From a virus (taxonomy: Duplodnaviria > Caudoviricetes): a stretch of 64,000 bases of DNA. This document shows, piece after piece, positions 14,320 through 35,300 of this stretch. The translations under genes were made by a program, and so were the position numbers. Numbering within the stretch: position 1 is the stretch's first letter; every line of letters begins with the position of its first letter. The notes under the pieces are model-generated. The model searched no databases. It had not been told where the DNA came from and was given only the letters and a program-made list of their open reading frames with translations. The stretch covers positions 17,434 to 81,433 of IMG/VR virus record IMGVR_UViG_3300021255_000136, one strand, 5' to 3'.

Positions 14320-17300
14320 TTATTTGCGACGGTTGTTCGTGATCTTTTCGTAGTCCGACCAGTGCATGTTGTAGTCGAGTTTTCTTCCGTTAGAGGAGGT
14401 GGCTCTTGAAGAACTGCTCTGGGCGGGTGTCGTGGTGGAACTCGCCTGGGTATTGGGCGGGATCACAAACGGAGTGGTCTGGGTGCCGGATGTTCCGAGA
14501 TCTCTGGTGAAGTCCAGAGGCTGGCTCATCCAGCGGTTGAAGCCCCAGTTCGGATCTGCCTTATTGGCGCGATCCTGTTCGTCAGAAACCTTCCTGACGA
14601 TGCCGAAGTCACGAGCCGTCTGGTTACCGGATGTGGACATACCGGACTTGTGCAGGCTTCCTTCGAATGCGGATGCGATCCTGTCGATCATAGCCACTTC
14701 CTGATCATCAGTAAGATACTTGGAAGTGAACGCATCGAAGTTCTGCTCCATGTAGTCCATGTATGCTTCAACACGGTGTGCGCGTTCAACATAGCTGAGA
14801 GTGTTGTTCTTTACACTTGTACCGACTTTGCTGGTGTAGCGCTGTTGCAGGAGATCGAACTGCTCCTCTCTCGTCAGCTTGTCGTTGAACAGCATGGAGA
14901 AGAACACATCGTTGCGGCTTGCTGTAACGTCGCGCTTATCTTCATAAGGTATGCTGTTATCGATAAGCCACCTTGCGTACTTCCCTTCCTCAAGCTTGGC
15001 TACAGCATTGTCTAGATCACGGAGAGCACCGGCCTGTTCGTTGAAGGACAGAGCCTTGAATTCGGCGCTGTTCATCATCTGGATAGCTACATCGATGAAT
15101 CGCTCCTGTTCATGTCTTGCTTCTGTGTTCTTCTGGTCTGTACTGAGTACCATCTTGTGCCCGATCTGATCCGGGTTGTCAATGCTGGACGCGCCAGTCA
15201 TCTTCCCGGCCATCCACCTGACCTGCTCTTCAACAGTAGAGAAGTTGTCCAGCGCGATCTGGTATGCCTCGGTCCACTTGTATCCGGCCTTTACATCCGC
15301 CAGCGCTTCGACTGCGTACTCATCAGCGTCGTCTTCGATGAAGAAGTCTCCATCCTCTCCGGCCTGATCAGCGGTCATAGTGAACTGCGTCTTCACCTGC
15401 CCGGTTGCAGACAGATTTCGTGCGAAGGCTTCTTCGACCTTAGATGCTGTCGCATTGAATCGGGCTGCTACTATGGCTTCCCTATCTTCCTCGGTCTCTG
15501 CCAGACGGTAGGCGCTGGAGTTCAGGGTTTCCGCATACTCCTTATCCCATGCAGCAGCGAATTCCTTATCGAGGTCTCGCTTCTGTGCATCGGTGAGGTT
15601 AATGACGAAGCCCTTCTTGTCCGGGTTGTCGATCTTGCTCGGTACAGCATAACTGTCAGCGAGGTAAGCAGCCTGCTCTGCAACAGTTCCGTCCATGTTG
15701 ATCGCGACATTGAACTTCTCCTTACCAGCCTGGGATGCTCTGCCAACTTCCATAGCCCTGCTGGAGTTGTCCAGTATCTCGCTGTACCTCTCCTTCGTAG
15801 TCTCACGAGCTCTGTTGTAGGCGTCGTTGATAAGATATCCGCGCTCACGATCATCGGCCTCAGCATAGTCCTGGCTGTTCTCCAGCTTACGCATCTCTGC
15901 TCTGATCTCTTCGTTGAAGATGTCCCGCATCGCCGCCTTGTCCTCATCGGTTATCTCATAGACATACCCGACGTTGCCAACACTGGAGAGCTCTCTCGGA
16001 GGAGCGAACTCTGCTGACACCATGTCAGCTATCTGCTCGGTAGTAAGGCTCGGAGTTACGGCCAACAGCTGGAACAGATCGTCATTGGAGTAGGCATTGG
16101 GCAGGTTGTACTTCGTGGTGATGTAGTCTGCCGCACCAACCTTCAGTGCTGTCTGCTTGGTCATATCCAGTGCGTAGTGATCAGATACCGTGTGCCGTCC
16201 GAAGTCTTTAGCGATATCGAACGCCTGCTGCATCATAGCCAGCTTCCCTGCGTCGTCTGCCTGGATGTACACCGGATCGGTCATAACCTCGAAGCAGATC
16301 TGGTACGCAGCGCTACCGGCTACTTTCATCAGCTGTTCGAATTCTTCAGCCGTGAGATCCTTCAGCCCCTCATCCGTTTTGAAGCTCTTGGACAGTTGTT
16401 TCGGGATTATGCTGTTATCTCCGGTGGCCTCGTACAGTCTCATGAGCTCTGCGTCTACCGGAGTCTCGTTGATCACGTTGGCATAACCAGGCGACAGGAA
16501 GTTCTCCAGTGCTCTGAGGAACCAGCTGTCATTAGTATCCGTACGGCCCCACGCATCGACATATGCCATCTTCTGACTTGCCCAGCCGGGTACCTTGCTC
16601 TGGATCGAGTTCTGAACGAACCGCTGCAGAGCTCCGGGCATCGGGCTGTTCTTATCCGTATAGGTCGCCCTTCTATCCGGGTCTGCCGTTCTGGCGATCT
16701 GGCCGAAGAATGTAGGCATACCCTGGGCGAAGTAGCTCGTGGTCATTGCCGCCAGCAAAGCGGAGATACCGTTGACATCAGAGCTGTAGGCCAGTGAGGA
16801 CAGCGTGTTCTCGAAACCATCCAGCATGGACATTGCCAGCATAGGATCCGCAATACCCATCAGTGCTGTCCACAGATTGGACGGGGTACTGAGATCAACC
16901 TGGCCGCTGACGAGATTATAGATAGTCGCGCCTACGAACAGCGGCATCGACATCGGTGCCATCCAGTCCATAGTGTAGCTAACTTTCTTCCCGTCTACTG
17001 TAAACTCCACTGCCCAGTTCTGATGGCCTTGGAGTTTTTTCATCTTATCCTTATCATCGTCTCCGGTCCCGCCACCACGGAGTAATCCTGCGGAGGCAAG
17101 TAATGCACCGAGGATCATGACGCCGGTACCGGTAAGTCCAGCTGCCATGTTGTCAAGGATCTGCATGGTGTTGCCGTCGCCATTCTTCAGTGCCGCCTTC
17201 AGGTCAACCAGGGACTTGATGAATCCGGGGAGTGAATACTTAGCTGCGCCCAGTACGAGGATGTTGGCCGGGGTGCTGACGAACGGTAACAGTCCTTCCA

Positions 17301-20300
17301 TCAGTACGTTGCCAATAGGTCCGGATGTACTCTTGAACCGGTTCAGTGCCATAGCGAAGGTGTTCAGCTCATGGTAGGTATCACGCTGGGCCTGCATCGT
17401 CGCGTACTGTCTGGCCTTGTTTAGCATCTCTCTGCCTTCTCTGGTGTTGAAGATCGTCGGTTCTTCAGAGTTCTCTTCGCCTACTTCCATAGCCTTCAGG
17501 AGATCTTCTTCAGATACGCCCTGAGCCTGTAGTGCTTCTGCCAGTGCTCTGACATAGTAGCGCTTCTGGAATGCGAAGTCAGATTTCTCCAGGAACTCGC
17601 CATTCTTCTTCGACAGTTTGTCAAGTGGAGCCCAGCCGAAGATGTCGCGCTTGTTCAGGATATCACTGATGTCGTTGAACTTGTTGCCAGTACGCTTGCC
17701 TGCTACGACGTCTTGCATAGTTGCGTAGTCGCGCTGTGCAAACCGGACATAGGTGTTGTCGGACTCTTTGCCAAACAAGCCTACCCAACCGGTAAGTTCA
17801 GCACCGGGTACGTGCATCTTGTACTCGGGGTCAATAATGCCGGGGATCTGTTCAAGACGTCGCAGGATAAGATCTTTCATGAACACTGCGGGCATGAAAG
17901 CTGCATTACCAACGAAGTTCCTTATGTGGGTTCTCGGATTGCCTAGCATCGCCAGATATCTCCAAGCGTTCCACTTATCCATGATCGTTGCGGGGATCTG
18001 GTCAGCAATATCTTTCTTGATCAGTTCCATGATATCGCTGATCTCCTGACGGCTTGTTGCGGCCATCAGTCTCTCTGCCAGTTCCTGGTTCAGAGTGATA
18101 CGCTGCATCTTGTTCTTCGGGTTTTCTATCCTCTTTGCATACGTTGCATTCAGGTGGTTGATAACACCGTTGATGTAGTAGAGCTGGCCTTGCGGTGTCG
18201 CCTTCTTAATAATCGACATCGCCTGTACAGCCTGACCTAAGTTGGTACCCAGGATAGACAGATCGGCTGCTACCTTGACTGCCTTATCATAGGTGTTAGG
18301 ATCAGAGCTGAATTCCTGGATGAGGAGTTCTGCCAGTGCGATCCACTCAGCTCTCGGCAGTTCACCACTCTCGACCATTGCGCTGAATGTGTTCATTGCC
18401 TGATCGAAGTTGCCGTTGAAGCGATTTGAAAGAATGCTACGCGCCAGTCGGATAGACCTTGCGTTGGACTGAGGGGTATATCCCAGCAGCTCATTTGTCA
18501 TACCTTCATACAGCATGCGCTCGGTGAGGTGTTCGTTCTCGACGTTTGCCGCTACGGTCTGCATGTGCTTCCGCACAGCGGTGTTGTCAGCGGACTTCTT
18601 CGGGAGATGTACATCATCCTTCTTGTCGCCTCTACCTTTCGGGAGCTTGCCGTACTTCTTTATAGCGGAGTCGATTGCTTTGTGGAGTTGTTCCTTCTTC
18701 TCCTCGGTCAGGTCGTCGGCGTAGTCAACTACACCCTTCAACCGTTCAAAGCTGTCGGCCAGAGCCTGTGGTCCGTTCCGGTTGACATACTCGTTAACGA
18801 TGTCCTCCAGCTTGAACGGGTCGTTCTGGTTGGCGTTGAGCAGGTAGTTGTACTCGAAGGAGTTGATCGGGAACGTGTCCAGTGTGGTGATCTGCTGGCC
18901 GCTAGCGTTGCGGAAAGTGAAGGTCTGGTCTCCTGTTGCGTTCTCCCTCATCGGGTTCTCGAAGCCAACGGAGAATTGTTTGCTTACACCTTCCTGCGCT
19001 TCACTCTGCGGTTGACTCTGTTCATACAGTTCTCCATTGTCTCCTGTGCGTCGAGATGTTCCTTCTTGATCCTGCGCAGGAACTTCTTCCGTTCCTCGTC
19101 GTAAGCCAGCATCCTGTTCACGGAGACGATATCCAGTATCGACATCCCGATTTGCAGGAGGTATTGTATAAGGTTGCGTTGTGGTTCGGTCAGTACTGTT
19201 GGCATTGTTCATCGCCTCCAAATAATTGATGTATTGTGCTTCGGGGGAATCTCCTCCTACGTTCTCCATGACCACCGTCTCACCAGAGTCGAGCTGGTAG
19301 TATGCGGTATCGTCGGAGTAGTACAGGTTCGGAGAAAGTTCGGACTGAGTAAGGTCTGTTGGGTTGGTGTTGGAGATTTCAACTTCATCGCCGAATGCGT
19401 CGTAGGCAGCATTGGGGTCGATGGAGAGGGAATAGCTACCAGCAACCCCCCAGGAATTTACGGTATTGAAAATTGCGTCTCTGGAGTACTTCGGCGCATT
19501 TCTCCGCCTACGTTCGGCTCCCCATTCCAATCTGCTTTGAACATCTCTGGCCTCGATTTCTCCGGCTGTATTCCTATAGAGATCGTAGTCGGAGTCATTT
19601 TTGTGAGACCGGTTCCTGCTCTGGGAAAGATCGTAGTTACTCAAGAAGTCTGCTACTTCGCCGAGACCATACTCGCCTATCGCCCACAGGAGCTCTTTCT
19701 GATAGTCCTCGCGCTTTTTCTCATAGTATAGCTGGCCATTCTTCTGGAAATCCTGCAGCGTCAGATGAAGCATTTCGTTGCGGGTTTCTGCCATAGCATA
19801 GAGCCGATTCAAGCCATCTGCTGGGATGTACAGTTTCATGGCTTCTAAGGCTTTCTTTGCACGGTCCTTCGGTGTGTACGGCACTCGTTTCCCGTTTACG
19901 TCGATCTGGTCGTCCCAGGCTTCGAGATTTGAACCGCTCGCAAATCCTTCCATATACTGGATAGCGTGCTGTATTTCATGCATCAATGTACTGCGTACGT
20001 CTCTCTCGGCCTCTGATAAATACCCGACGAGGTCATCAAGAGCAATTGTGATCGTGAAGCTGGAGGGATCAAATTCGCCGCGTACATTACTCGGCATTTC
20101 TGTGAAAACAACGGTATAGTTTTTAAGGTCAGGATAGTTAGCAAATAACATCCCGGCGTTTCTTAAAACTTCTGGGAGCTTATACTCGGACCTGTAGTTT
20201 TCTGCGTTACCAAGAGAACTTTGTATAGCCGCGTTCCATTCCTGATCAAGTACAGCAGGACGTATGGTAAAGTCCTTATCATAGATCTCCCACTTCCATT

Positions 20301-23300
20301 TGCCGTCAACGCCACGGAACCATCCAGTATCTTTCCAGATTTCATCCCGGCTGTATCCAGCTATTTCCCTCTGCTCAGCTGATTCGAGTTTACCGAGATC
20401 AGCGCCTTTTGCAGCTGGGCCAGCGAGGCTAAATCTTTTCTCAATTCTGTCTACTTCATCGCGGACAGCTTGAGCGCTCTTCCGTTCTTTCTTTGCCGCA
20501 TCTCTTTCAGCTTTAGTCTGATAAGAGTACGGGAACGGTTCAAGACCTGCCTCTTCACGAGCGGCGTTTACTTCAGAAAGATATTTTCTGTAGTTAGCTT
20601 CAGATAGCCCTGTACCAGTAAGGTCAATTGGAACGCCAACTTCCTGAAGAGCAGAGAGCAAACCGGAAGGTACAACATTGAAAGGCACACCAAGACCGGG
20701 TGCTTCCCTGTCGAGGATCTCCTTGTACTGCTGGGCAACTTCGATGTTGGACAGCTTACGTACCGGCATGAGCCACCGAGAAAGATACACATGTCTTTGT
20801 GTGTTTTCTAACTGGCTTGCTAGGGAGCCGCTCTTCCAGTCGTGCATACCAACAGCATCTTTTGCAGTAACAATATCTCCGTCAGAACGAGTTGCCTTTT
20901 CAGGATCTGTTACACCGAAGTGATAGCCGCTGGTCAGCTCACTCTTTGGAATGGCGCACATATACGTTACCAGGTTGGGACGTTTGTACGCAATGGAGAA
21001 CTGGTCATTGAGAACTACATCGCTAGAGTGCTGGTACGGGTTATACGCAGCCGGTACCACGGAACCATCTACGTCGCTCTTCTCAAGTCCATAAGTCCAG
21101 GATACTTCACCGGTCTTGTCATTGACTTTCTTACCGAGGCTCTTGGAGTTTGGATTGCCTACTGACTCTTCCCACACCCCGGGACGGAGAGCATGCGATT
21201 GGCTCTTCTTGCCTGTCTCGTCTTTCTGCACACCGGCCATAGGAGCAATAAGATATGGATCTCCGTTCTCGTCTTCGTACTCAAGGAATGATTTGTATGT
21301 GTAAACCACATCACCGTTCTCGAGCTGATCGTTAAGGAAGTTCAGCGTATCTGGATCGGAAACAGCGATGGAATACATCGGGTCCATGTCACGCTGTTCA
21401 GAAGTTTTATATCGGTCTATCCTTCTATTATCTTCATCAACAGCTTCGTTCTTAGCTGCTATCTGCTCGTCGTCGAGGAACTGGTTCGGTATATACTTCA
21501 AGAAATGCCCGTCCTGAGGATTGACATTTTTAAAGATATCTGCTATACTATATGTAGCTGATACCAGGGCCGATGCAGGAGTCTTAGATTCCTCCGTCCT
21601 CCCCGTGACGTCAGCTTTTATTTTTGCCAACGCGACGGTCATATACAATTTGCCTCCATCATTGGAGGTATTTTTTATTTCAAATTGTACTGGGACGAGG
21701 CTGTTCTCATCTTTGAAAACACTAAGTAAAACCTTTGTGTCTATTAGATTTCGGCTTTCTCGTTTCGTACCGGCGTATTTATCCGTATGCGCTTCAATTA
21801 GAACTGCCGAATTTAATAAGTCATCGATGTTGATTAGCGCTTTTGCAAAGTCTAAGTAAGTCCCGCCTGTTCTGAGTTGCTTGTGAAGACTCTCCCTTAA
21901 ACCACCGTTTTTAGAAAACAGAAATTCGATTTCTACTTCAGGAGAGGATAAGGCCCGATTTAGTATTCCAAGCTTTTCTGCTAACGGATAAATGACTTTC
22001 TCCGCTCTGCTCTTGGCTATACTCTCTGCTTCCAGCTCGCTAAGTTCTTCTGCATAGTCCTGAGATTTTGTATCGACAACAGCAGTAATAGTACGGTCTT
22101 TAAGTTCCTCGTAGCGCTCATCTTCGGTCATCCCGGCAGATATAGAATACTGCTTATTGACACCCTCACCGTCTTGTGGTATACTATTATTCGACGCTAT
22201 GGGGTGCCGGGCGAACCAATCTTGGTTTTCGCCATTGAAGTCGATGTTCGGATTATTTCTGGATGTCGGCTGGAACGCGACTCCCACGGCGTTATTTTTT
22301 TGCATCATTGCATGGTACAAAATACTACGACCGTCATCAGCTTGCGCTATGCTCAGGATTACAGGATATATATTCTGCCTGTCCATGACGTAAGCTTTTC
22401 TATATTCAAATCCGTTCCTATCCATCCACTGGTGGTTCTCTCTCGGGTCGGTGTCCTGCTCGGAATAGCCCTCGAACTTGGAGATCTGCACTACTTCCGG
22501 AGCGTTGAGGTAGACCATACGAGTCGTGCGGTTCCTGCCTCTACCATACGTTAGCTCTGTCAGAGGATGGTGCGCGTTGCCATGCTTTGATACGTCCTTA
22601 TCTTTGGCATCTGCAAATACAATAGTCTCCGGTACGCCGTAGTCGGATACTGTTCCGATCTCCATACCAGCGAAGTTATTCATAACGAAGTTATTAAACT
22701 CAGCGTTTCTGAAGTACCTGCTCTTGAGGTCAGTATCCATGTAGACAACTTCGTCATAGGTCTGGCCGTTAACGTCTACAACATTCTTTGCGACGGAGAA
22801 CCGCATATCTCGATTACTATCATCAAATCTCTGAGACAGAGGAATAATATTGCCGTCGTCGTCATATGTGACTGCGTCGGCTCTTTTTATATTCTCTGCG
22901 TTCAGCATGATGTAGGACTCGTTACCGGCGTCTTCCATCTCATTGATGTACCGGATGCTGTCGTAACCCAGACCGAGTAAATACTTCTGTGCGGACAGGT
23001 TGGCGATTCTTCCGAGGTCATCGAGATCGTCGTCCGTCACTGCCGCGCCTTCAAATTCGCCCTCGTTGTACAGAGCATCCTGCCAGCGTTGCGCATCCGC
23101 TTCGTACTGGTCATACGCCTCGTTCCTTACCAGAGCCTCTTTGAGTTTCTTCGAGTTGGCCTTGGTCCACTTGGTATTAACAGCGCGTCTCGGAATGTAC
23201 CCGTCCTCGATCCAGTCATCGACGTCGTCCATCATGTTCTTCAGGGCCATAGGATCGCCCCACACATCCGGTGTACGGAGTGTGTTCTCCATCTTGAGAT

Positions 23301-26300
23301 ACACATCGTAGATGCCAGGGTTGTCACCGAGGTTGTTGTACAGGTTGTTGTAGAATGCCTCAGCTGCAGCTCGCGTACCGAAGTGAACACCAAGTTCGTT
23401 CGCAGATATCATACGGAATTCATTGAATCCGAATGACTGCGTACCGTGGAATGCTTCCTTCTTGTACCCGGCTTTCTTCGCTGCCTTCTCTACCATAGCC
23501 TGCGCTGTTTCCATGTCGTCGCTCTTTACAGCGTCCATGTACTGCTGGTCGGATTTGCTCAGGCTGTACTGCATACCGGGGTGCTGCTCCTTATACTGGG
23601 CAACGAACTTGTCTACGATACCGTGGGCGACCGGGAATACGTTCGGGTTCTCGTCGTAGCTGTTGAGCATACGATTGACCTGATCCATATTGAAGATAGG
23701 ACGTACCGGCAGCTGGGGTGAACCGTTACCGTTGTTGTCGTACATCTTGAAGTCGATCAGGAGTTTCCAATACCCATCCGTGCTTCCGTCTTCCTTCAGG
23801 GAGTAAGATCCATCCTTATTATCAGTAAGGAACTTGTAGAACTTAGGCCTCTTACCATCCCTTGCACACATCCCGAGATACTTCTCCGCGTTCTCTTTCC
23901 CGGACTTACTGAAGTCCCAGTACTCGTTCGGCATGTAGTTCGTGCATTTGGTTGGGACGTCTCTACCCTGCCATTTGTGCGTGTGCTCTTTGGGATTAAG
24001 CCACTTCTCGTTCTGCTGGTATGTGTAGTCCTTTGTAGTAGCCGGAAGGCCCATAGCTTTGTACTGGGCTTTCTTCCACTGGCTGCGATGGAATGGAATA
24101 ATAAAGTCGATCCGATCATCGGCCAGAGCAGCAAGCAGCTGGGCGTCATCATAGACGCAGCAGATCGTACCGACGTTCCTCGGGTATGCGTTCCTCAACT
24201 CCATAGCTGTGTCGAAGTTCATACCTTCTTTATTATTAAAGACTAATTTACCGTTCTCATCCACAGACCATGCGTCAATACTCAGGTTGATCTTCAGCCC
24301 TGTATCGCCAAGCGCCCATGCGAAGTCAGGTACTTTCGTGTAGGCCTGACCCTGCAGTCCTACTCTACTCATATCCGTTATCACTTGCATAGCATCTATG
24401 AGATGTACGATTTCAAAGTCTGAGAAACTTTGCATGCGGATACCGCCGTTCCGGTTCTTCTCCCGGATCATATCAGCGTCTTCGAAATGCTGACGGATCT
24501 CGCCCTTGTACGCGCTTCTCATCTGGTACAGCTTCGGCTTCTGCTGACTTGCGAACAGGTTCTTGTCGCCCTTCCGTAACGTACCATAGTGGTTCCAGAA
24601 GTACTCGTACTCTTCATATACTTCCGGGTGGTTCTGCCGTACCCACTCAATACCGTCCGGTGTATTCATCTGGGCCATGTTCGGTACCCACTCACCCGGA
24701 TGATATTTCTCGTACAGCTTGAGGAACTCCTTGGTGAAGATGCCCATCGTAGCGCGTGAACCTTCGACGTAGCATTTACCGCAGCTTACTTCGAGCCCGG
24801 CGTCGTCCATCATTGCCCTGATACTCAGAACATCGAACGGAGTCAGTACGGTATTCGGTAATGCGTTCTGGATAGCGCTGAACGTACCGGTGAGCAGTCT
24901 GCGTTTTTTGCACAGTGTGGTGAAGTCAAAGCTTCCGCCATACTCTGCATTGCTTACGAACGGAGACTTGCCGGTGTCTTTATAGTCCAGACGGCCTTTG
25001 TCTTCAGCGATCATCTTGGCCACGCTGTTAACGTCATCAACCCACTTCTCAGCCTGTTCGTAAGTGACACCGAGCTGTTCGACAAGCGCGGTGATGGCCT
25101 TCTCCCTGTCGGTTACGTAGTCGCTTGCGTTCCATGTAGATAGTGAATAAAGTTTATTGGCGCTGTCACCGTTCGTCTCTATCTCGGATGCACCGGAGCT
25201 GAGTGAGAAGAACATCGAAAGATTGGACACATAGTTCTTCTTCGGGGATGCCGCCTTCTCTTTAATATCCATAACGATGGACTCGGGGCTGGTGCTGAAG
25301 TCATAGAATGTGGTTCCGTATCCGCCGTTTATCTCAACCGTGAGCTTCGGATCTTTGGCCCATTGTGAAGAACCCGGCCAGTCCTTGTGCGAGAATACCC
25401 ACTTAATATAATCGAGTAGCTTTTCACACTGCACATCGGTTAGCTCCGCGCCAGCAGACGCCTCGATTGCCGGACCTTCTGCCGCGATACGGACATTGCC
25501 TCTCTCGATGAAGTCCGAGCGATAGTTATTGTTATCGGGTAGCAGCTTAACTCCTGATTGTTTATAAGCCTTTTCGACTGTACTGTGCGTAGCACCACCG
25601 GTCCGCATCCCGTTAGGGTTGTTCTTCATCCAAGTGCGCATTTCCTCCACTTCTTCTGCCGGTTCGCCCATTGCGAGCAAGCTGTCCATCTGCTGGTCAA
25701 TACCGGAGAAGTCCAGCATATCGCCGTATGGTGTGATGTACCCGCCATAGCAAAAGTATGGTGTGGTTCCGAAGATCTCAGTGGCCGCGTCTACTACCTT
25801 GACTGTACTGGATCTGGTAGAATCTTTCCAATCGTCAACGGAAAGGCTGAAGAACATCGCAAACGGTGAGACGTACTTCCGTTTGAAAGAACCGTGCTCA
25901 TAGTAGTAAGCGATCTCGTCTGTTATGTCATCCGCGCTCTGGCCCAGCTTGAATGTCTTGGACTCAGCATTGTTTCCGTTGTCGTCCATGATATCCACCA
26001 TGAATGTATCGGAGCCATGTACGCGTCTGTTCTGCTGTGCCCACTCGATGTATTTCTCGATTGTGGCAAGCTGTTCAGTTGTCGGCGCTGTTGTTTTGAA
26101 GAGGTGAACACCCGGTGCTTCAGGCTGCATACGGATGTTGCCCTGCCTCATGAACTCCACCATGCCTTTATCCTGCATGTTGGTGCCGACGTCGATACCA
26201 ACAGACTTATAGACATTAGCGATTTCACGATGGTCAACAGTACGGTTTTCCTGGAACTTTTCATACGTCTGACGGTCCTGAGGTCTGAGCTCATGGGAGC

Positions 26301-29300
26301 CGGAGAAGTTAAGCATCTGGCCCTGCGGAATAATGTATCCGCCGTGACGATAGTTAGAGGTGATACCGAACGTTCTGATCGATGCCATCTCTACCTTGCG
26401 CTCGTCTTCTGTAGCGTTCTCGTACCAGTCCTGAGCAGAGGAGATGCTGAACCGGAAGTCAGGATCATTGGTCGGGTTTTTGTTGTCCGGGTCCTTGAAC
26501 TGGTTGGACTCGAAGCCGACAACAATCGTGGCGAGCGTTCCGTCCAGAGTACCATCGTCTTTGCCACCTACATCTTCAATGTTTCGGAAGATAACGCCGT
26601 CATAGCCATGAGCATGTGCCCAGTTTACAACGCCGTTAGTGGTCATAGTTCCCGGTATGTCTTCTCTAAACAGGAAATTCTCCTGCTGCTTCGGGTTTCC
26701 TATTCTCTCCAGATATGCCCGGATGCCGTCCTTATCGGAGAGTCTACTCCATATTCCGCCTTCAGCGTCATAGATATACGGATTCTTCAGATTCGCGTAT
26801 AACGGTCTGTTGCCTCTGGTTGTGAAGTCCTCTACCGTCGGCGGTGCAAATTGTTGTGCCAGTTCGATTGCGTCTTCTCTGGACACCATCTCGCCATCGA
26901 ATTCGAATACGGACTCGTTATTCTCATAGGCGTCATACAGTTCGTCGTAGAGGTATTCAAAGTTATCGAGTTCTTCCTCGAGCTGGTTCATGATCTTGTC
27001 TATGAACCTCTTCAGCGATGGCGCGATTTCTGCAATCTCCGGAAGATGATCCCGTGCAATCTTAGCCTGCTCGATAACACCTTCGAAATAGTTATCGGCA
27101 TCACCAGCCGCCGCCTCCATAAGATTCCGTATCCTTTGCGCTGCGTTTAGGAAATCCTTAGAATACGGGGCCAAAGCCATTAGTGTATCGAGACTGTGTG
27201 CGAGAGTATACAGGTTCTCTACATTGTCATACAGTTCGTTCTCGACAAATACTCGACCATAGCCGTCACTGTACCCGGTCTCTTCCTCTGCCCTCTTAGC
27301 AAGGAAGTCGCCCAGCTCGTTGTCGTCCATTTCCTCTATACCCGGTACCTCAGTCATCTCACGCATGGGGTTAACCTCACGCATGGTACCTGAGTAAGAT
27401 CCGGCTATACGAGGATCGTCCACCGCAAAGAAGCTCAGATGGTCTGCCGCCCACTGCGGGTCGAAGATGTTCTGGGTGGCGTGTGTAATAGATCCGTGCC
27501 ACAGCTTCAGCAACCGGCCCAGATTATCTCTGACTCTGGAGCCTTTGAAGTACTCCAGCTGACCTCTGGACAAGCTGGCACCTTGGTTGTCCTCAGCTAC
27601 ATTATCGCCGTCCATAGTTACCGGCTGGCTAAGACTGTACTGCTTGCCCTTCACGAAATCACTGTAGTCCTGCGTCTGGGCTGCTTCGGATGTAGCGTAT
27701 TCTACCAGCTTGTTGTCCAGCTCGAACTTCTGGGCTAGGCGCTGGTATGTCGGCATATCGGACTGAATAAGCGAGACACCATGCATCCACGACATTCTAT
27801 CTATGCCATTTACTAGATCGGCGTACATCTCGTTGAGGACGGCCTGCTCGAATTCCTCTGGGGATTTATTGGCATAGGCGTCTTTGTAAAGGCCGCTATA
27901 ATAGTCGTAGAGCCGGTCGAACAGGGATTTCTTTCCTTTGAAGATTGCTCCTATCGCCTTCTTCAAATACTTAGACCGTTCAGCGTCGTTGAGCTTCTTG
28001 AGCATCTCGTGGGATATCTCGTGGTGCGCATTCTTAATATCCCTGTTGACGTTAATGATCATGGTATCCATGCCGTGATTATTAAAGACCACGCCATCAA
28101 ACGGAGTTCTATTTATTACCTTTCCGTTCTCGTCACGGATCAAGCTGTATAGACCATCCGCGTCAACAAAAAAGACCCGTTCTACGCCAGCGCTTTGTGC
28201 GCGGCGTACAGCAGATCTCTCCTCATTAGTAAGTACGGACTCGTCATCCGAGAAGGAATCGTAGACAACGAAGCCGTGGTTATATTCTATTGTATCTCTC
28301 TTCTTCTCGCCTGACAGGTCGAGAAGAGTTGCGTTTACTCGTCGTCCCCGAAGATCTCGTCCATCAGAGCTTTCTTCCGCCCCTGATATTCCTTCTCCTC
28401 CTCCGCTGTTCTGGGCTTCGGATTCAGCGGATCCCACTTGCCCTGCTGATACAGTTCCAGCTGCTCCTGAGTCATCGGGATTGACGCTCCGTTCGGCAGG
28501 CGTACTATCATTCGGTCGAATATCATTATCTGTTCCTCCATGTCTGGATTGTAGTGTTGCAAGGTCTTCCTGTGCTGCAGCTAACTTACGCTCCACTTCC
28601 TGCAGACGTTCAGCGTTGCCTTTGGGATCATTATATATCCTGTCACGCTCTGATGTCAAGCTAGCTATTTCACGCTGTGTGGACTCGACAGTAGCGCCGA
28701 CATTAGGCACACGGAACGGTTGAGGTGCTGTCTGGGTCTTAGGCGCGGATTTCTTCGACGTGGATTTCTTGGGCTCGCTTTTTGTGCTCTTCGCCTTCTC
28801 TGCAGTCTTGTTCGACGCGGTACGGTCTGGTTTGGTAACGGTGATTCCGTACTCCACTTCCATTGTGCCAAATGTATCGTTGGCTGCACGGTCCATCATC
28901 ATATCGAACTGGAGATGCGCCTCTTCTGCGGATTTGCCCTTCGACACCTCGCTCTCGACAAACTCACGACGTGTCTTCCACGGGAATGACGGATTGAGAC
29001 GTACCTTATCCTCCCAGCTTCTGGGATGGACTTCTCTGGCCCCGAGCTTCTTCTCCAGCTCCTCATCGAGGTTCTTTACCTTCTGCTCTTTGGGGTTCTT
29101 CGGCTTCTCTGTGGTATCCGCCTTGTCGCCCTTCTTCACGACTGCAGCGCCAGTGTCAGTACCCTCAGTCTTGGCCACCCAGTTTATAGCTGCGTTCTGT
29201 CCTGCGCCGTCGAGGATAAGTTTAAATTCTTTCGCCGCTACGTCCAGAGTAACATTAGAGTTCTGAGCGTGGCGCATATTATAATAAGAGTAGACATTGT

Positions 29301-32300
29301 AAGTCCTGCGCCCGATCTTTATCTGACGACCGGCCACATCCTTTGCACTCTGCGGTATAGACGCCTGATAGGAAGCTATCCTGGTCTGCGGGTCCAGACG
29401 AGGTGCTGGCTGTGCCGCCTTGGACTCAGTCTTCGTCGTGGTCTTGGAGGACTGTACACGCGGTGCTCTATTCTCTGTAGCCGCACCTGGCATTGAAGTA
29501 TTAGCCGGAGGGATAACGTCCATACGGAATGCTTCGATATTCGGGTTGTTCGTACCACCAAGCTGAGCCTGTTGTCTTGCCTGCATCAGCTGCGCAAGAT
29601 TGTCATTTGCATGAACGGGTGTAGGAGTAGGACCATAGGAGCCTTGTGTATACCCCATGGACCTGTTCATCTGTTGCTGGCCACGATACTCGCGTTCGTT
29701 GTTCTGGCTAATACCCGCGCTTCTGGCTTCCCGCTGTTCAATGTTGGCATTAGCAAGACGGAAGAATTTCCATGTGTTGTTCAGTACGTCGTTGATATCC
29801 CCGGTCTGGATAACCTTCAGGAGATCCTCAGACTGCTGGCCTACCGTATTAAGAATGTAGTTGTAGATCGCATTCCTCGTATTGTAGTCCTTCATGAAGT
29901 CTTGCGCTGCGAACTCCTGTATGCTCTTATAAGTAATACGAGCAGAACCTTTGAGTATTCCTTCTAGGAAAGACTGTACATCCGCTGCTGTACCTGCATC
30001 CAGACCATATTTGTCATGGAGCGTGGTACCGATATCCGAAAGAACAATACTATTCGGATTTTGAGTCTTGGCATAGAGGTACGCCATAGACTCCGTATTC
30101 TGTCTGGCCTCGTGGTCAAACTCGTTAACAGCGTTGAAGAACCAGTTCGGCATGGTTTTGAACATACCCTCGCCGTTCTCGAGGACAATAGCGTTGAACA
30201 TACCCGGATCGAACTCACGAACCATAAGAGCCAGCTTACCGATATCTCTTGCAATATCTCCGGTCTTGGCCGTGTTGTTGGCCTGTTGTTGCTCCAGATA
30301 CTTCAGTCGTGATGCGTCGTTCGGTCGGCTCTGGTTGTTCTTCATCCGCTCATAGATCTCTGCGATCTCGGCTTGGATTCTAGTACCGTTCTCAGCCACC
30401 GCCTGCATTCTACTGTTCCAGCGGTTACGGATGTCCTGAGCAAGTGATGTAATCTCTCTTGCCTGCTCGCCTTTGTCGAAACCTCTGTAGTCCGTCTCGC
30501 CGTTCCCTTCAGTCGGGCCCGGAGTAGGAGTACCTTCTGTGTGAGTTCGTGCAGTGGTTCCTTCTGTAGCGGTTTCTGTATCGGTGGTCGTGTCCTGCGG
30601 GTTCTGTACTCTAAGCGGCTCACCTTTCTGGGTATCGGCACTCGGTTCGCCATTCCGGGAAAGCTCGGTGCCGTCTACCGTAGACTGTTCCTGCTTGGTA
30701 TCTTTGCCCACAGAGTATTGCTTGCCATTGCTGCTATCGGCCATCGCTGCCCTGTAGTCTTTTAGATACTGGCGGGCATCGTTTCTCTCAGTTTCTGCCT
30801 GCTGGCGCATAGTTTCAAAGTTGCCCATCGCTTCATCTACAAAGCTCTTGGTCTCCGAGTGTTTATTGAGCTCGTGGAGTACAAAGTCTATGCCGTACCA
30901 TAGTGTGGCATAGTCGGTTTTTTCGCTTACTCCTTTTTTCCGGTTGCCCGCGTCACCGAGGTCAATAGTCGTCCCATCGCTGAAATTAATCCAAGCTTCG
31001 ACGGCTACATCTGTAGGCGCCTTCGTGGCCTTATCAAGTCCGCCATTAAAATATTTCTTACGCTGCTTGTCTATTTCTTCTCGCGAGAACCCAGATTCTG
31101 CGAGAGCACGAAGATCGTATGGGGAATCAACATGAATTACCGTGCCGTCGGCAAGAGTCCATTCGTAACCGAAGTTGTTCGAGTTAGTCCAGTGATCGAC
31201 GTCTTTGGCTTGGTCCATCATACTGAACAGTGCGAAAGCATCTTTAGCGTCATTAAGCCGCGTAAATTTATCGGATGCATTATACACATTATTCTGTGCT
31301 TCTTCTAGTCCCGCAATCCGTTCTGCTTTTGTCTTTCCGGTAAGATCAATTGGCTTCTTATCTTTACCGGGAGCAGACGCGTCTTCTTTGCCGCTATTCT
31401 GCTGATCGTCAAATTGTTCCTTCGTGGGGATTACAGGTGTAGCAGGCGCCTCGTTTTGTTGCTCCGCTTCGGCAACTTCCGGTGCCTGCTCTGTAATCGG
31501 ACTAGCAGGGGTCTGGTCTACTGATGCTGGCTCAACTGGGGCCGTGGCTTCTTCAGTCGTCGTTCCGGTTGTTTCACTTGTCGCGCCGGAGGTTACTGAC
31601 GGGGCATCACTAGTATGCGCGAGAAGGTACTGCATCGCGTCATTGTATTTGCCGCGTACGTCGTTAAGTTTATTCTGTAGTTTTTCAACCGCTGAATCAT
31701 ACCAGCCATTTAGAATATCGGCGACATCTTTATTTGCATTTCCTATCTTCTCAATGGTCTGATCTATTCCGTCTTCTTGTTTATAATTATAACTTGCGAC
31801 GTACTCTGCCTGAGATTTAAATGTCTGTGTCTTTCCCTTTGCCCCCGCATTGAAACCGGTGATTGTTCCGTCTCCGTTGTATATAAACGCTCTCGGGAAG
31901 AGATGATGTTTATCCCCGTCTGCGAATTCAATGTGGATGTTCTTTCCGTTTGCAAGCTGTTTTTCATAGGCCACGCCATTACCAAAGATTGTAGGTACCT
32001 TCTTACCCGTTCTTGCAATGGTAGAGAATATTGTCGCAGCTCTGCCATTCTGCTGCAGCTTCTCAAGCCTATCTTCAAGCCCTGTCTGTTCCTGATTCAG
32101 CTTGACAAGGTTGTCGTAGTTCTCGTTATATTTCTGCTGCTCTGGCGTTAGCTCTTCTTTTGTGACTTCGGGAGCGTTCTCCGATACTCCTTCTGCTTCA
32201 GAGCTTCCGTTCTTCACTTCAGCAGCAAGTCCAGCCTTAGCTGAACGGATCTGGTCAGCCATGTTCTTGATCGTACCAGTGAGCTCTATGCCGGTGATAG

Positions 32301-35300
32301 CTTTAAATGCATCACGCAGGCCTTGGTCTCTTGCGATCTCTCTGGCTTCCTTAATAGTAACAGAGTCCTGCTTCCTGTTGAGGATGGCCTTTACACGACT
32401 CTCTTCTTCAGTGTCGTCAGGAGATGACGGGAACTTACCGTTCTCATCAGCCTTTGCACGAGGTATAGCCAGAGGTTGCTGCTGTTCTGCTCTCTCTTCC
32501 CCGTGGCGATTCGGTGCTGGCCCTGTAGGTGTTGTGTTTGCGGGAGGAATAATTGCCGGTGCCTGATTCTCCTCGGGAGTACTACCTTCCTGTGCAACCG
32601 GTGCTGCAGGAGCAGCGGGTGTTGCATTCGCAGGAGGAATAACTGCCGGTGTCTCAGGTGCTGCAGGAGCCGCGTTTTCAACTGTAGTCGTCTCCGTATC
32701 ACCAGTGGTTTCTGACGGAGTATACCCAGCCTCTGCTGCGCGTTGTACAGCAGCAGCCACAGGTGTTACGGGAGACTCGGCAGCGTACTGCATCATCACC
32801 GGGTCTTTGGAATGGTCTAGAACAGAGTTGGTAAAATCTATACCAAGACCGCTTTTCAGCATATCGTTACCGATCTGCCTGTACGTTTGGTTGGTCTTGC
32901 CTTCTCTTACGGCATTACCGAAGCCCATCAGTGCACCACTGGCAAAACTGTCTGTTACAATGTCAGCGAGTTTTTTCTTTTCTTCCTGCTTCAGGATATA
33001 CTCGGCTTCTTCTGGAGTAATGTCAGATTCTTGAAGCAGTTCATTCTTTCTGGTGTGATACTCACTTCTCTCGCCTTCAATCCACTCCGCGATAGCATTT
33101 GTGAGTTTTTCTGTATTGAATTCTTCACTGGCCTCAACGAAGCCGGACGTAGACGTTTTTAATACGCCGTTAACTATATCGTTAAAGAGCCCGTTACTGG
33201 AGAGTTCAATATCCGGGATCTTATCGAATATGATATCAAGGGATACAGCTTCACTAAAGCCATCTGCAAAAGCACTGGCAAGAGCGTATTGGTTGGCTTT
33301 ATTTACATCTCCGGTACGTGCAAACGATTCTTGGAATGCATTTGCATAAGAAGCGCCGCCATAAGCCAGTGTCGTATACCCCCAGGAAATAGCTTTTGCT
33401 GCGGCTTCTGTAGCCAGCGCGGGAGCTGCAACCCCGGCAACTGATGCAAGAGCGCCAGCCATGCCAACAACGTATGTCGATTGCATAGCACTCTGTAAAG
33501 CTTTAGGCAATGTAGCCGCTGAAAGTGTAGTCTCACCGAAGAACGGGATATTAATATTTTTCTGCCAATGTTCTCCCAGTTCGCCATAAAGCCCGGCATT
33601 AACAGCGTCCATAAGTTCCATAACAGTTGGATTAGCATAAATCGGAACTTCGCCGGTACGTTTGGCCTCATTATAAAATCCGATTGAATCAGTTATGCCA
33701 AAGCCTAGAGCTGTTGGTATACCGGTGACAAATATTGAGCCCAGCAGATATGCCGCTCCAGCCGCATCGCCCCAGTTGCGCTTCCCGTCGAACAGATTAC
33801 CGGCCATTGCTGCGGAGAAGTCCTGTACCGCTTTGACTCTGGCCTCATGCGTTTCACCGTCATGGAGTCTGTTCTGGTCCTTTGCATACTCGAGAGCCGT
33901 CTGCAGCTCACCGTTGCCGATGTAGTAGGCATAGGTCTGTAACTCAGTATAAGACCACGTATCATTCGGGAGTACGTTGCCTACACCGAAACGCGCTATG
34001 TACTGTTCCGCTTCTTTCTTCTGAGTATCGGTCAGTCCAGGGATGACATCCAACAAGCCAGTTACGCCCTTTAGTTGCTGCTGGTATGCCTGCTGCGCGT
34101 TTGGATTGATAGTATCTTGATCGATCCTCTTAGATCCGCGAATAGCCATAGCCAAGTCAGCGAATCGTTCACCGGCTTTTACTTTATCCTGATAATTCTT
34201 ATCACGCTGGATATCTACGCCATAAACCCCGTGGCCTTGTTCGTCCACGCCGACCTGTACCTGAATACCACGGAAAGATTTCTGATAGCCAAGCTCTTCG
34301 TTCTTCTGGTCGATGGCCTTCTGATACTCTGGATGTGCTGCGTCAAAATTTGTCCAGAGCGTATTGAGAGTGGACTCGTTACCGGATTCCCACCAACTCG
34401 AGTTAGGCTTATTTCCGTTGCCAAGAAGATAGTTAGCGTACTCTGTTATAGACTGGTTCAGTCTGGCGTCGTATTGTCCGGACGCCGCAGTATCAAGCAG
34501 ATAGTTTGCAAAAGCCTGTTCTCTTTCACCAACCAGCCCGCGATTACCGGAAGCGTATTCCGGATAGGCTTTAAAGAAGTCCATGTCCAGCTGTTCCTGG
34601 AACCGACTATTAAGCCCCTTAGCATTTCCAAGTCCGTGCTCCTCTTTCCATTGCTCAGAGAAGTCGGTGTAATCCGCGTTCCAGTCATCCATGCTGTAGC
34701 CGAGTTCTGCTTTTGTCTGGGCAATTATATTCTCCAGACCACGGCCAGAGTTGTCGCTGATAAGGCCTATTGCCGAGTTGTAATAGTCACGGGCCTTCTG
34801 AGTTTGTAATTCATTCTGGAAGAACTTAGCTCTCTTGGTCTGCTCGTCTGTCAGCTTAGTATCGTCTTGAGAAGAACTATATTTCTTTTTCTCTTCCAGA
34901 ACTGCTTTCTGCTGAGCAATCAGATCGTTATAGAGCTTTACGTTCTCGTCATTCGGATCTAGGACATCATCTATCTGACTATCCAACGCAACGATCTGCT
35001 CGTCAAGTTCGTTATACTGTCGCGTCCAGTATGACTCATACAGGGTGTCGCTGATTTCGTTCTGAAGCTTATCTCTCGCAATGCGGGACTCGGTGAGCGT
35101 GTCGTATTTACCGAAATACTCTCCGGTTTCACGATAATGTTTGGCTGCTTCTGAACGGGACAAGTACTGCCATTCGCCGTTCTCGTCTTTAACCATAGCC
35201 GGGACGTTGACATATTGCCCGTCGTCATAGACCATGTACGCATCGAAAGCATCTTCCAGCTCGATATCGTCGTCTTCCTTGTCCGGTCCGAAACCGACAA

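Follow-up and report, generated by a model that had tools for sequence, protein, structure and literature searches.

A conserved small gene very probably nested out of frame in a linker of the giant polyvalent-protein gene of a ruminant-gut phage

Introduction

This report concerns a small open reading frame (ORF) inside the largest gene of a tailed phage. The window, by which we mean the whole stretch of DNA analysed, is 64,000 nucleotides (nt) long and corresponds to bases 17434-81433 of an 81,433-bp virus record (IMG/VR IMGVR_UViG_3300021255_000136; Caudoviricetes). Its giant gene encodes a polyvalent virion protein and is a single ORF of 23,292 nt and 7,763 amino acids (aa) on the minus strand (14320..37611), the last in a late operon. 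Nested within it, on the same strand and in its +1 frame, lies an ORF of 73 codons followed by TAA (18984..19205; product P0002). The comparison of the window with its relatives indicates that this nested ORF is very probably a genuine protein-coding gene, situated where the giant protein has a disordered linker. A first-pass annotation, made from the letters of the window, had proposed an independently translated gene at this place. The proposal is supported at the level of sequence, since the substitutions between relatives are synonymous in the nested frame, and the coordinates and product that it gave (73 aa, ATG at 19205, +1 frame, GGAGG at 9 nt) were found to be exact.

The nested ATG occupies positions 19205-19203 and the TAA positions 18986-18984 of the minus strand. 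The ORF is wholly inside 14320-37611 and out of frame with the giant gene (gene offset 18406; 18406 mod 3 = 1).

Selection on the nested frame

Eight sequences were compared: the window, three phage genomes from IMG/VR (G001, 84.9 kb; G002, 71 kb; G003, 80 kb), the metagenome contig L007, and the short ENA contigs L005, L015 and L016. The relatives were found by searches with a segment of the giant protein and then with the small protein. The eight sequences form one clade and are not independent. The nested copy in G003 is 82% identical to that of the window, and a further metagenome contig, L008, encodes the same 73-aa protein as G003. All eight sequences have the ATG in the same place, GGAGG 9 nt upstream of it, 73 codons, and the stop in the same place. 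Conservation, on which the first-pass annotation had made its proposal depend, was thus found in each of the seven sequences other than the window.

Which of the two frames does selection respect? Estimates by the Nei-Gojobori method for divergent pairs over the 73 codons gave a ratio of nonsynonymous to synonymous substitution rates (dN/dS) of 0.11-0.22 in the nested frame versus 0.8-5 in the giant frame. The translations of divergent pairs are 74-93% identical in the nested frame and 55-82% identical in the giant frame. Across the eight sequences, the variable columns are distributed over nested codon positions 1/2/3 as 26/13/44 (chi-square p 1.6e-4), and the least variable position in the overlap is the third position of the giant frame. 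The conserved segment immediately upstream (19206..19305, minus strand) is read in the giant frame only, as AYYQLDSGETVV...EAQYINYLEA. The 33 giant codons there have variable columns of 12/8/25 at giant codon positions, which is the normal giant phase. The change from 12/8/25 upstream to 26/13/44 in the overlap places a one-base shift of the coding phase at the nested ATG.

The same asymmetry is seen when single residues are followed. Among the codons that vary in DNA, 28 keep their residue in all eight sequences in the nested frame versus 1 in the giant frame, and the invariant residues number 49 of 73 versus 24 of 74. Switches between the CGN and AGR codons of arginine, which take two or three base changes, leave the nested residue unchanged. 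Selection on the nested frame begins at codon 2, and directly after the nested stop the conservation of the DNA collapses, with insertions and deletions.

As a control, a 74-codon segment was slid along all reliably aligned parts of the giant gene (about 2,300 alignable residues in three genome comparisons). The share of differences that fall at giant position 3 was 0.10-0.15 at the nested gene versus a median of 0.50-0.77, and the next lowest independent segment stood at 0.43-0.45 in all three comparisons. The segment that holds the nested gene is the only alignable part of the giant gene with an inverted codon-position pattern. Searches with tblastn of alternative-frame stretches against the relatives were dropped as uninformative, because every frame looks conserved where the DNA is conserved. 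By these substitution patterns, selection is shown to act on the amino-acid sequence of the nested frame.

Translation signals of the nested gene

A Shine-Dalgarno (SD) sequence, GGAGG, is located at 19215..19219 on the minus strand, 9 nt ahead of the nested ATG, and is invariant in all eight sequences. The spacer between the two reads CGATGAACA. Most genes of the phage have AGGAG or GGAGG 8-16 nt before their start, and the spacing of the nested SD is the same. In the giant frame GGAGG reads Leu-Glu-Ala, so that its retention forces a Leu codon ending in G followed by the Glu codon GAG; both are present in 8/8 sequences. The RNA around the nested start is unstructured (minimum free energy -6.5 kcal/mol, z +0.7). 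Judged by this alignment, the translation start signals of the nested gene are its own and are conserved. A promoter scan found no sigma-70-like promoter upstream of the nested ORF on the minus strand, and translation is therefore assumed to proceed from the late polycistronic mRNA. Ribosomes would start on that mRNA at the nested GGAGG-9 nt-ATG, and for ribosomes already engaged in the giant frame this DNA would encode a hydrophilic spacer. Positions 19105-19324 of the window are matched at 99% identity by a 220-nt contig that derives from a gut-metagenome poly(A) RNA-seq library and spans the nested start together with 120 nt upstream.

The overlap as read in the giant frame

In the giant frame, the overlap (18985..19206, minus strand) encodes aa 6136-6209, an acidic and very hydrophilic linker (isoelectric point (pI) 4.4; grand average of hydropathy -1.54). 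This linker is located after the metallopeptidase cassette and before the conserved C-terminal module of the giant protein. The first-pass annotation had placed the end of the ORF just before QFSV, and this is the case: the cassette-junction motif QFSV (18967..18978, minus strand) begins 6 nt past the nested stop. In the relatives (L001, L002, L004, L007 and L015 among them) the place of QFSV is held by KFAV, LYSA, RFSA, RYSV and RYST, and a motif of the form x[YF][SA]x occurs within a few codons past the nested stop in every relative.

The giant frame is open across the overlap in 8/8 sequences. When the nested protein was kept and its synonymous codons were redrawn, the giant frame was open in 0.5-1.7% of trials, which corresponds to a chance of 0.005-0.017 for each sequence. 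The 24 nt whose giant-frame translation is PY(T/I)IPPA and whose nested-frame translation is NLIQYLLQ are nearly invariant among the eight sequences. The invariance extends to all seven nested third positions of this run, in a frame where 44 of 72 third positions are variable. In the window the giant frame reads PYTIPPAN here (19150..19173, minus strand) and the nested frame reads (N)LIQYLLQ(I). At no other spot of the overlap do both frames look constrained. An earlier remark that both frames may be constrained at the IPPAN motif is therefore borne out, by a giant frame that stays open at about 1 in 100 odds and by the near-invariance of the 24 nt. Since the giant frame is kept open and PY(T/I)IPPA does not vary, the stretch appears to be dual-coding. 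Apart from PYTIPPA, the giant frame is shown by the substitution data to be selected only to stay open, and its peptide elsewhere drifts freely.

The motif [VIT]IPP[AN] occurs five times in the giant protein, at aa 1658, 1688, 2700, 6150 and 7717 (window positions about 32638, 32548, 29512, 19162 and 14461), in linkers and near the C-terminus. It is also present near the C-termini of the giant proteins of G002 and G003. No nested ORF was found at the other four sites of the giant protein, and the idea of paralogous nested ORFs at IPPAN sites was rejected on this ground. Since [VIT]IPP[AN] recurs without a nested ORF, it is a motif of the giant frame. It could be a processing or docking signal.

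The predicted product

Internal initiation would yield a basic, all-helical protein of 8.9 kDa (pI 10.2; 16 Lys+Arg versus 9 Asp+Glu), of which NLIQYLLQIGMSILDIVSVNR and MLAYDEER are examples of nested-frame peptides. AlphaFold2, run with six sequences, predicts four helices (residues 7-18, 23-32, 36-50 and 53-72) with a mean predicted local distance difference test (pLDDT) score of 67. The first-pass annotation had described the protein as three-helix-like, which fits this model only approximately. A homodimer prediction scored 0.00, which is not evidence either way.

Two lysis functions were considered for the product. An o-spanin (an Rz1-like lipoprotein) was rejected, as the protein has no N-terminal Cys or lipobox and its N-terminus, MPTVLT.PQ, is not hydrophobic. 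Its sole Cys, at position 60, is present in 4/8 sequences. A holin was rejected by a simple hydropathy test, in which the maximum Kyte-Doolittle mean over 19 residues was 1.02-1.38 in 8/8 sequences, below the usual 1.6. The most hydrophobic stretch is broken at G20 and contains Q, D, N, E or R. With no transmembrane stretch, signal peptide or conserved Cys, the protein is therefore neither a spanin nor a holin. Because a helix-loop-helix front half is joined to two amphipathic back helices rich in Lys and Arg, it might bind DNA or RNA, a guess that is less likely than not to be right.

Alternative explanations

One alternative is that the nested ORF arose by chance behind a chance GGAGG and is functionless. 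The giant gene contains 11 ATG-initiated ORFs of at least 73 aa in its +1 frame, versus 6.9±2.0 expected from 300 shuffles in which synonymous codons were permuted and the giant protein was kept. The longest ORF in the +1 frame has 141 aa versus a shuffle mean of 137, and GGAGG-N5-10-ATG occurs 3 times versus 4.2±1.9 expected. Given the giant peptide and random synonymous codons, the composition of the linker alone leaves the +1 frame open over the 73 codons with P = 0.13-0.67. ORF length, the presence of an SD and the openness of the +1 frame were rejected as standalone evidence, as all lie within chance expectation. In the sequence of the window alone, the nested ORF and its ribosome-binding site are not beyond chance, and a reader of one sequence is unable to tell this ORF from its ten equals. 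Because its single-sequence features are within chance, the case for the nested gene rests on the conservation pattern among relatives. All of the comparative evidence speaks against a chance ORF, including an inverted codon-position pattern that recurs in no other alignable part of the giant gene, and refutes it as far as the comparison of sequences can, so that we consider it highly improbable. An equally small probability is given to the idea that the island is conserved as a nucleic-acid element, for example as an RNA structure, a regulatory site or a recombination joint, and that the open +1 frame is its by-product. Such an element would fit the perfectly conserved runs of 24-36 nt, the place of the island at a cassette junction where relatives swap modules, and the recurrence of about 1/10 of the words sampled from a 1-kb stretch in many ruminant-gut runs. 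It would not account for variation with a period of three in the nested phase, down to the residue-keeping CGN/AGR switches of arginine, or for conservation that begins with the phase shift at the ATG and stops at the stop codon. Nor did RNAalifold find covariation (term +0.13; 1/43 pairs compensatory).

Two further alternatives accept that the nested frame is translated. According to one, the small gene is real and the giant ORF is untranslated across it, so that two genes flank it and the open giant frame is a relic or an accident. Here the giant-frame peptide evolves freely (dN/dS about 1 or more), on short contigs gene callers annotated the small ORF together with a downstream gene that starts at the next ATG, and L015 has a TAG in the giant frame (L015:32-34), 120 nt upstream of the nested ATG. 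This stop is 32 nt from the end of the contig, where assembly errors are common, and the giant frame is open past it; the giant gene may truly be split there, or the contig may be misassembled. At this place L015 reads LY*SEDG where the others read LYYSEDG. The openness of the giant frame in all eight sequences, at the low chance given above for each, argues against a split gene, as do the conservation of the giant-frame motif PY(T/I)IPPA, which restricts synonymous change in the nested frame, and the lack of an SD-equipped start codon that would open the C-terminal module in the window. A split gene is thus unlikely, although less so than the two preceding alternatives. The other proposal, that the +1 frame is reached by programmed frameshifting and that the product is a truncated giant protein with a basic tail of 73 residues, falls between these in probability and is very unlikely. 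Phages make two products from one gene by frameshifting, as with the tail chaperones G/GT, and this known use suits an ORF on the same strand at a +1 offset. The +1 frame also extends without a stop for 16-21 codons ahead of the ATG in G002, G003 and L007. However, the +1 frame of the window, G001 and L005 is closed by a TGA at a distance of two codons from the ATG, no X XXY YYZ heptamer occurs within -60 to +30, the ATG and GGAGG are invariant, and selection on the nested frame is present from codon 2.

Several observations weigh against a genuine nested gene. The pairwise figures overstate the size of the sample, because the eight sequences share one clade. A set of 27 more distant IMG/VR phages (L022-L048) encode proteins of 1,400 to more than 3,000 aa that end with the same C-terminal module (27-38% identity), and the small gene and the linker are absent from all 27. 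The gene is therefore not essential to the C-terminal module, and the overlap belongs to one clade. The sole contig from an RNA library (19105-19324) may be carried-over DNA and is silent on the reading frame. Searches of the 73-aa protein against Pfam, PHROGs, NCBIfam and PADLOC returned nothing significant. The best family match was ExbB TIGR02805 (E 0.0027; 15 bits versus a cutoff of 135), Pfam gave no match under E 0.01, and a sequence-profile search of PDB reached P1 ParB at E 0.066. A fold search with VIA-align gave Z of at most 4.4 (top match MerR), the noise level for a helical model of pLDDT 67, and Foldseek against PDB and BFVD gave only E above 2. The ParB and MerR hits are what these searches yielded for a possible kinship with helix-turn-helix DNA-binding proteins (MerR, ParB, LuxR-like). 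With no match to a family, a solved structure or a fold, and with a model of modest confidence, the product is an orphan, and the suggestion of nucleic-acid binding is drawn from composition alone.

Distribution of the nested gene

Within the clade the giant proteins are mosaic in build, with lengths of 5,620-7,763 aa and an identity of only 34-44% over the parts that align. A blastn search of 50,697 GenBank phage records gave no match, and a scan of GTDB species genomes gave no relative. Among 1.84 billion representatives, phmmer found two true matches to the small protein, both of them the nested gene on short contigs. A third match, P0006, was rejected as a repeat protein aligned on a charged stretch. 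A profile search of a collection of 5.8 billion proteins added two further copies; that collection contains the nested gene no more than four or five times, and each time on a short contig in which the giant ORF is cut off. No usable match to the nested protein was found in the ESM Atlas. A 706-bp ENA contig, L006, joins the N-terminus of a DUF969 membrane protein in frame to nested codon 20 onward (L006:123-395). This contig is most likely a chimeric assembly and was set aside as a relative. The sequencing runs in which the stretch occurs carry the labels sheep, goat or bovine gut. Many runs contain only a small share of the sampled words and were not used for a finer naming of the habitat, which is given here as ruminant gut.

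Genomic context, origin and a second nested gene

The minus strand of the phage carries a late operon with the large terminase, portal, tail fibres and an endolysin-like gene, and the giant gene is its terminal ORF, downstream of the terminase, portal and tail-fibre genes. The opposite strand encodes an integrase and a primase-helicase, which indicates a temperate tailed phage. The giant protein matches the Pfam family LPD23 (E 4.9e-18) and has a HEIQH zincin motif at aa 5878-5882; on these two features it fits the class of polyvalent proteins (PMC5512222). Like the members of that class, it is very large and multi-domain, combines an LPD with a metallopeptidase, and adjoins virion genes. Its conserved C-terminal module (aa 6210-7764; window 14323-18984) includes hydrophobic Gly-rich stretches and has no match in Pfam or PHROG, yet it forms the end of giant proteins in at least 27 other IMG/VR contigs. 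The giant proteins of the window and G003 are 92-100% identical over about 300 aa (aa 5401-5700; window about 20512-21411) and about 35% identical in the flanks. Such an island of identity suggests that two giant genes which are distant elsewhere have recently exchanged a cassette.

Which of the two overlapping frames is older? Scored against the codon usage of the phage, the nested frame is at the 99.5th percentile of +1-frame windows, and its synonymous-codon score equals the frame-0 average. The codon usage of the giant frame over the overlap is at the 5th percentile of frame-0 windows. Because the nested frame fits the codon usage of the phage and the giant frame does not, the small frame appears to be the native one. 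It is probable that the small gene was there first and that the giant frame came to run through it, and not that the small gene arose within the giant one.

A second nested gene (P0009; 28335..28526, minus strand) encodes an acidic product of 63 aa in the +1 frame of the giant gene and has its own GGAGG-6 nt-ATG. It is located 9 kb upstream of the 73-codon gene, in another linker, and its sequence is unrelated. The first-pass annotation had described the two as sharing a frame offset and linker context, and they do. In G002 the counterpart of the second nested gene (L017:1480-1662) encodes 60 aa, has its own SD, and lies in an open giant frame; the two share the motif LPNG..PMT.E.L..YQ.G.W.P. 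The second nested gene was not found in G001 or G003. It is conceivable, though we would give this slightly less credence than nucleic-acid binding, that disordered linkers in giant polyvalent genes of phages regularly house independent small genes in another frame, with two unrelated examples in this giant gene. The giant gene may have grown as its neighbours fused across a small gene that already existed, whose -1 reading became the linker, and the nested basic protein may work with the conserved C-terminal module, which it precedes in every case. The packaging, processing or delivery of the giant protein may be examples of such work.

Relation to known systems and implications

The arrangement resembles that of the spanin genes of phage lambda, Rz1 within Rz (PMC5295617, PMC6139136). 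Each is a small gene contained wholly in a larger gene of the same strand, read at a +1 offset and equipped with start signals of its own. Each belongs to the late region of a tailed dsDNA phage, and in each case both frames are maintained. Unlike Rz1, the nested product described here has no signal peptide, lipobox or conserved Cys. The host gene encodes a polyvalent protein of 7,763 aa rather than an i-spanin, and conservation is stronger in the embedded frame than in the host frame, which reads as a free-running linker. The overprinted genes of small viruses and phages, such as E in D and B in A of phiX174, likewise encode two proteins in one DNA stretch, with one reading disordered and fast-evolving, and asymmetry of selection and codon usage is the standard diagnostic for them (PMC8227390, PMC3494269). 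Overprinting is usually explained by pressure on genome size, with the new frame being young and disordered (PMC8227390, PMC3494269). In contrast, the genome considered here is 81 kb, the small frame is structured and codon-adapted, and it is the giant reading that is disordered. The giant gene itself agrees with the polyvalent proteins described by Iyer et al. (2017; PMC5512222), very large multi-cassette proteins with LPD23 and an HExxH metallopeptidase that adjoin virion genes. The description of that class includes no gene nested in a linker. In the paper the word "overlapping" is absent, and "nested" occurs twice, both times for a hairpin fold (PMC5512222). The giant polyvalent host gene, the host frame as passenger and the orphan product are the three points of difference from Rz1 and from overprinting.

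Gene finders drop any ORF contained in a longer one, and annotation thus misses a gene of this kind. The case presented here suggests that a conserved and selected small gene can hide in the largest gene of an 81-kb dsDNA phage, in which genome compression is no obvious driver. The annotation of polyvalent and other giant phage genes should add a comparative scan of alternative frames, and the linkers of polyvalent proteins are suggested as sites for further hidden genes. The unusual asymmetry between the two frames points to gene fusion by read-through as a route by which giant polyvalent proteins may have grown.

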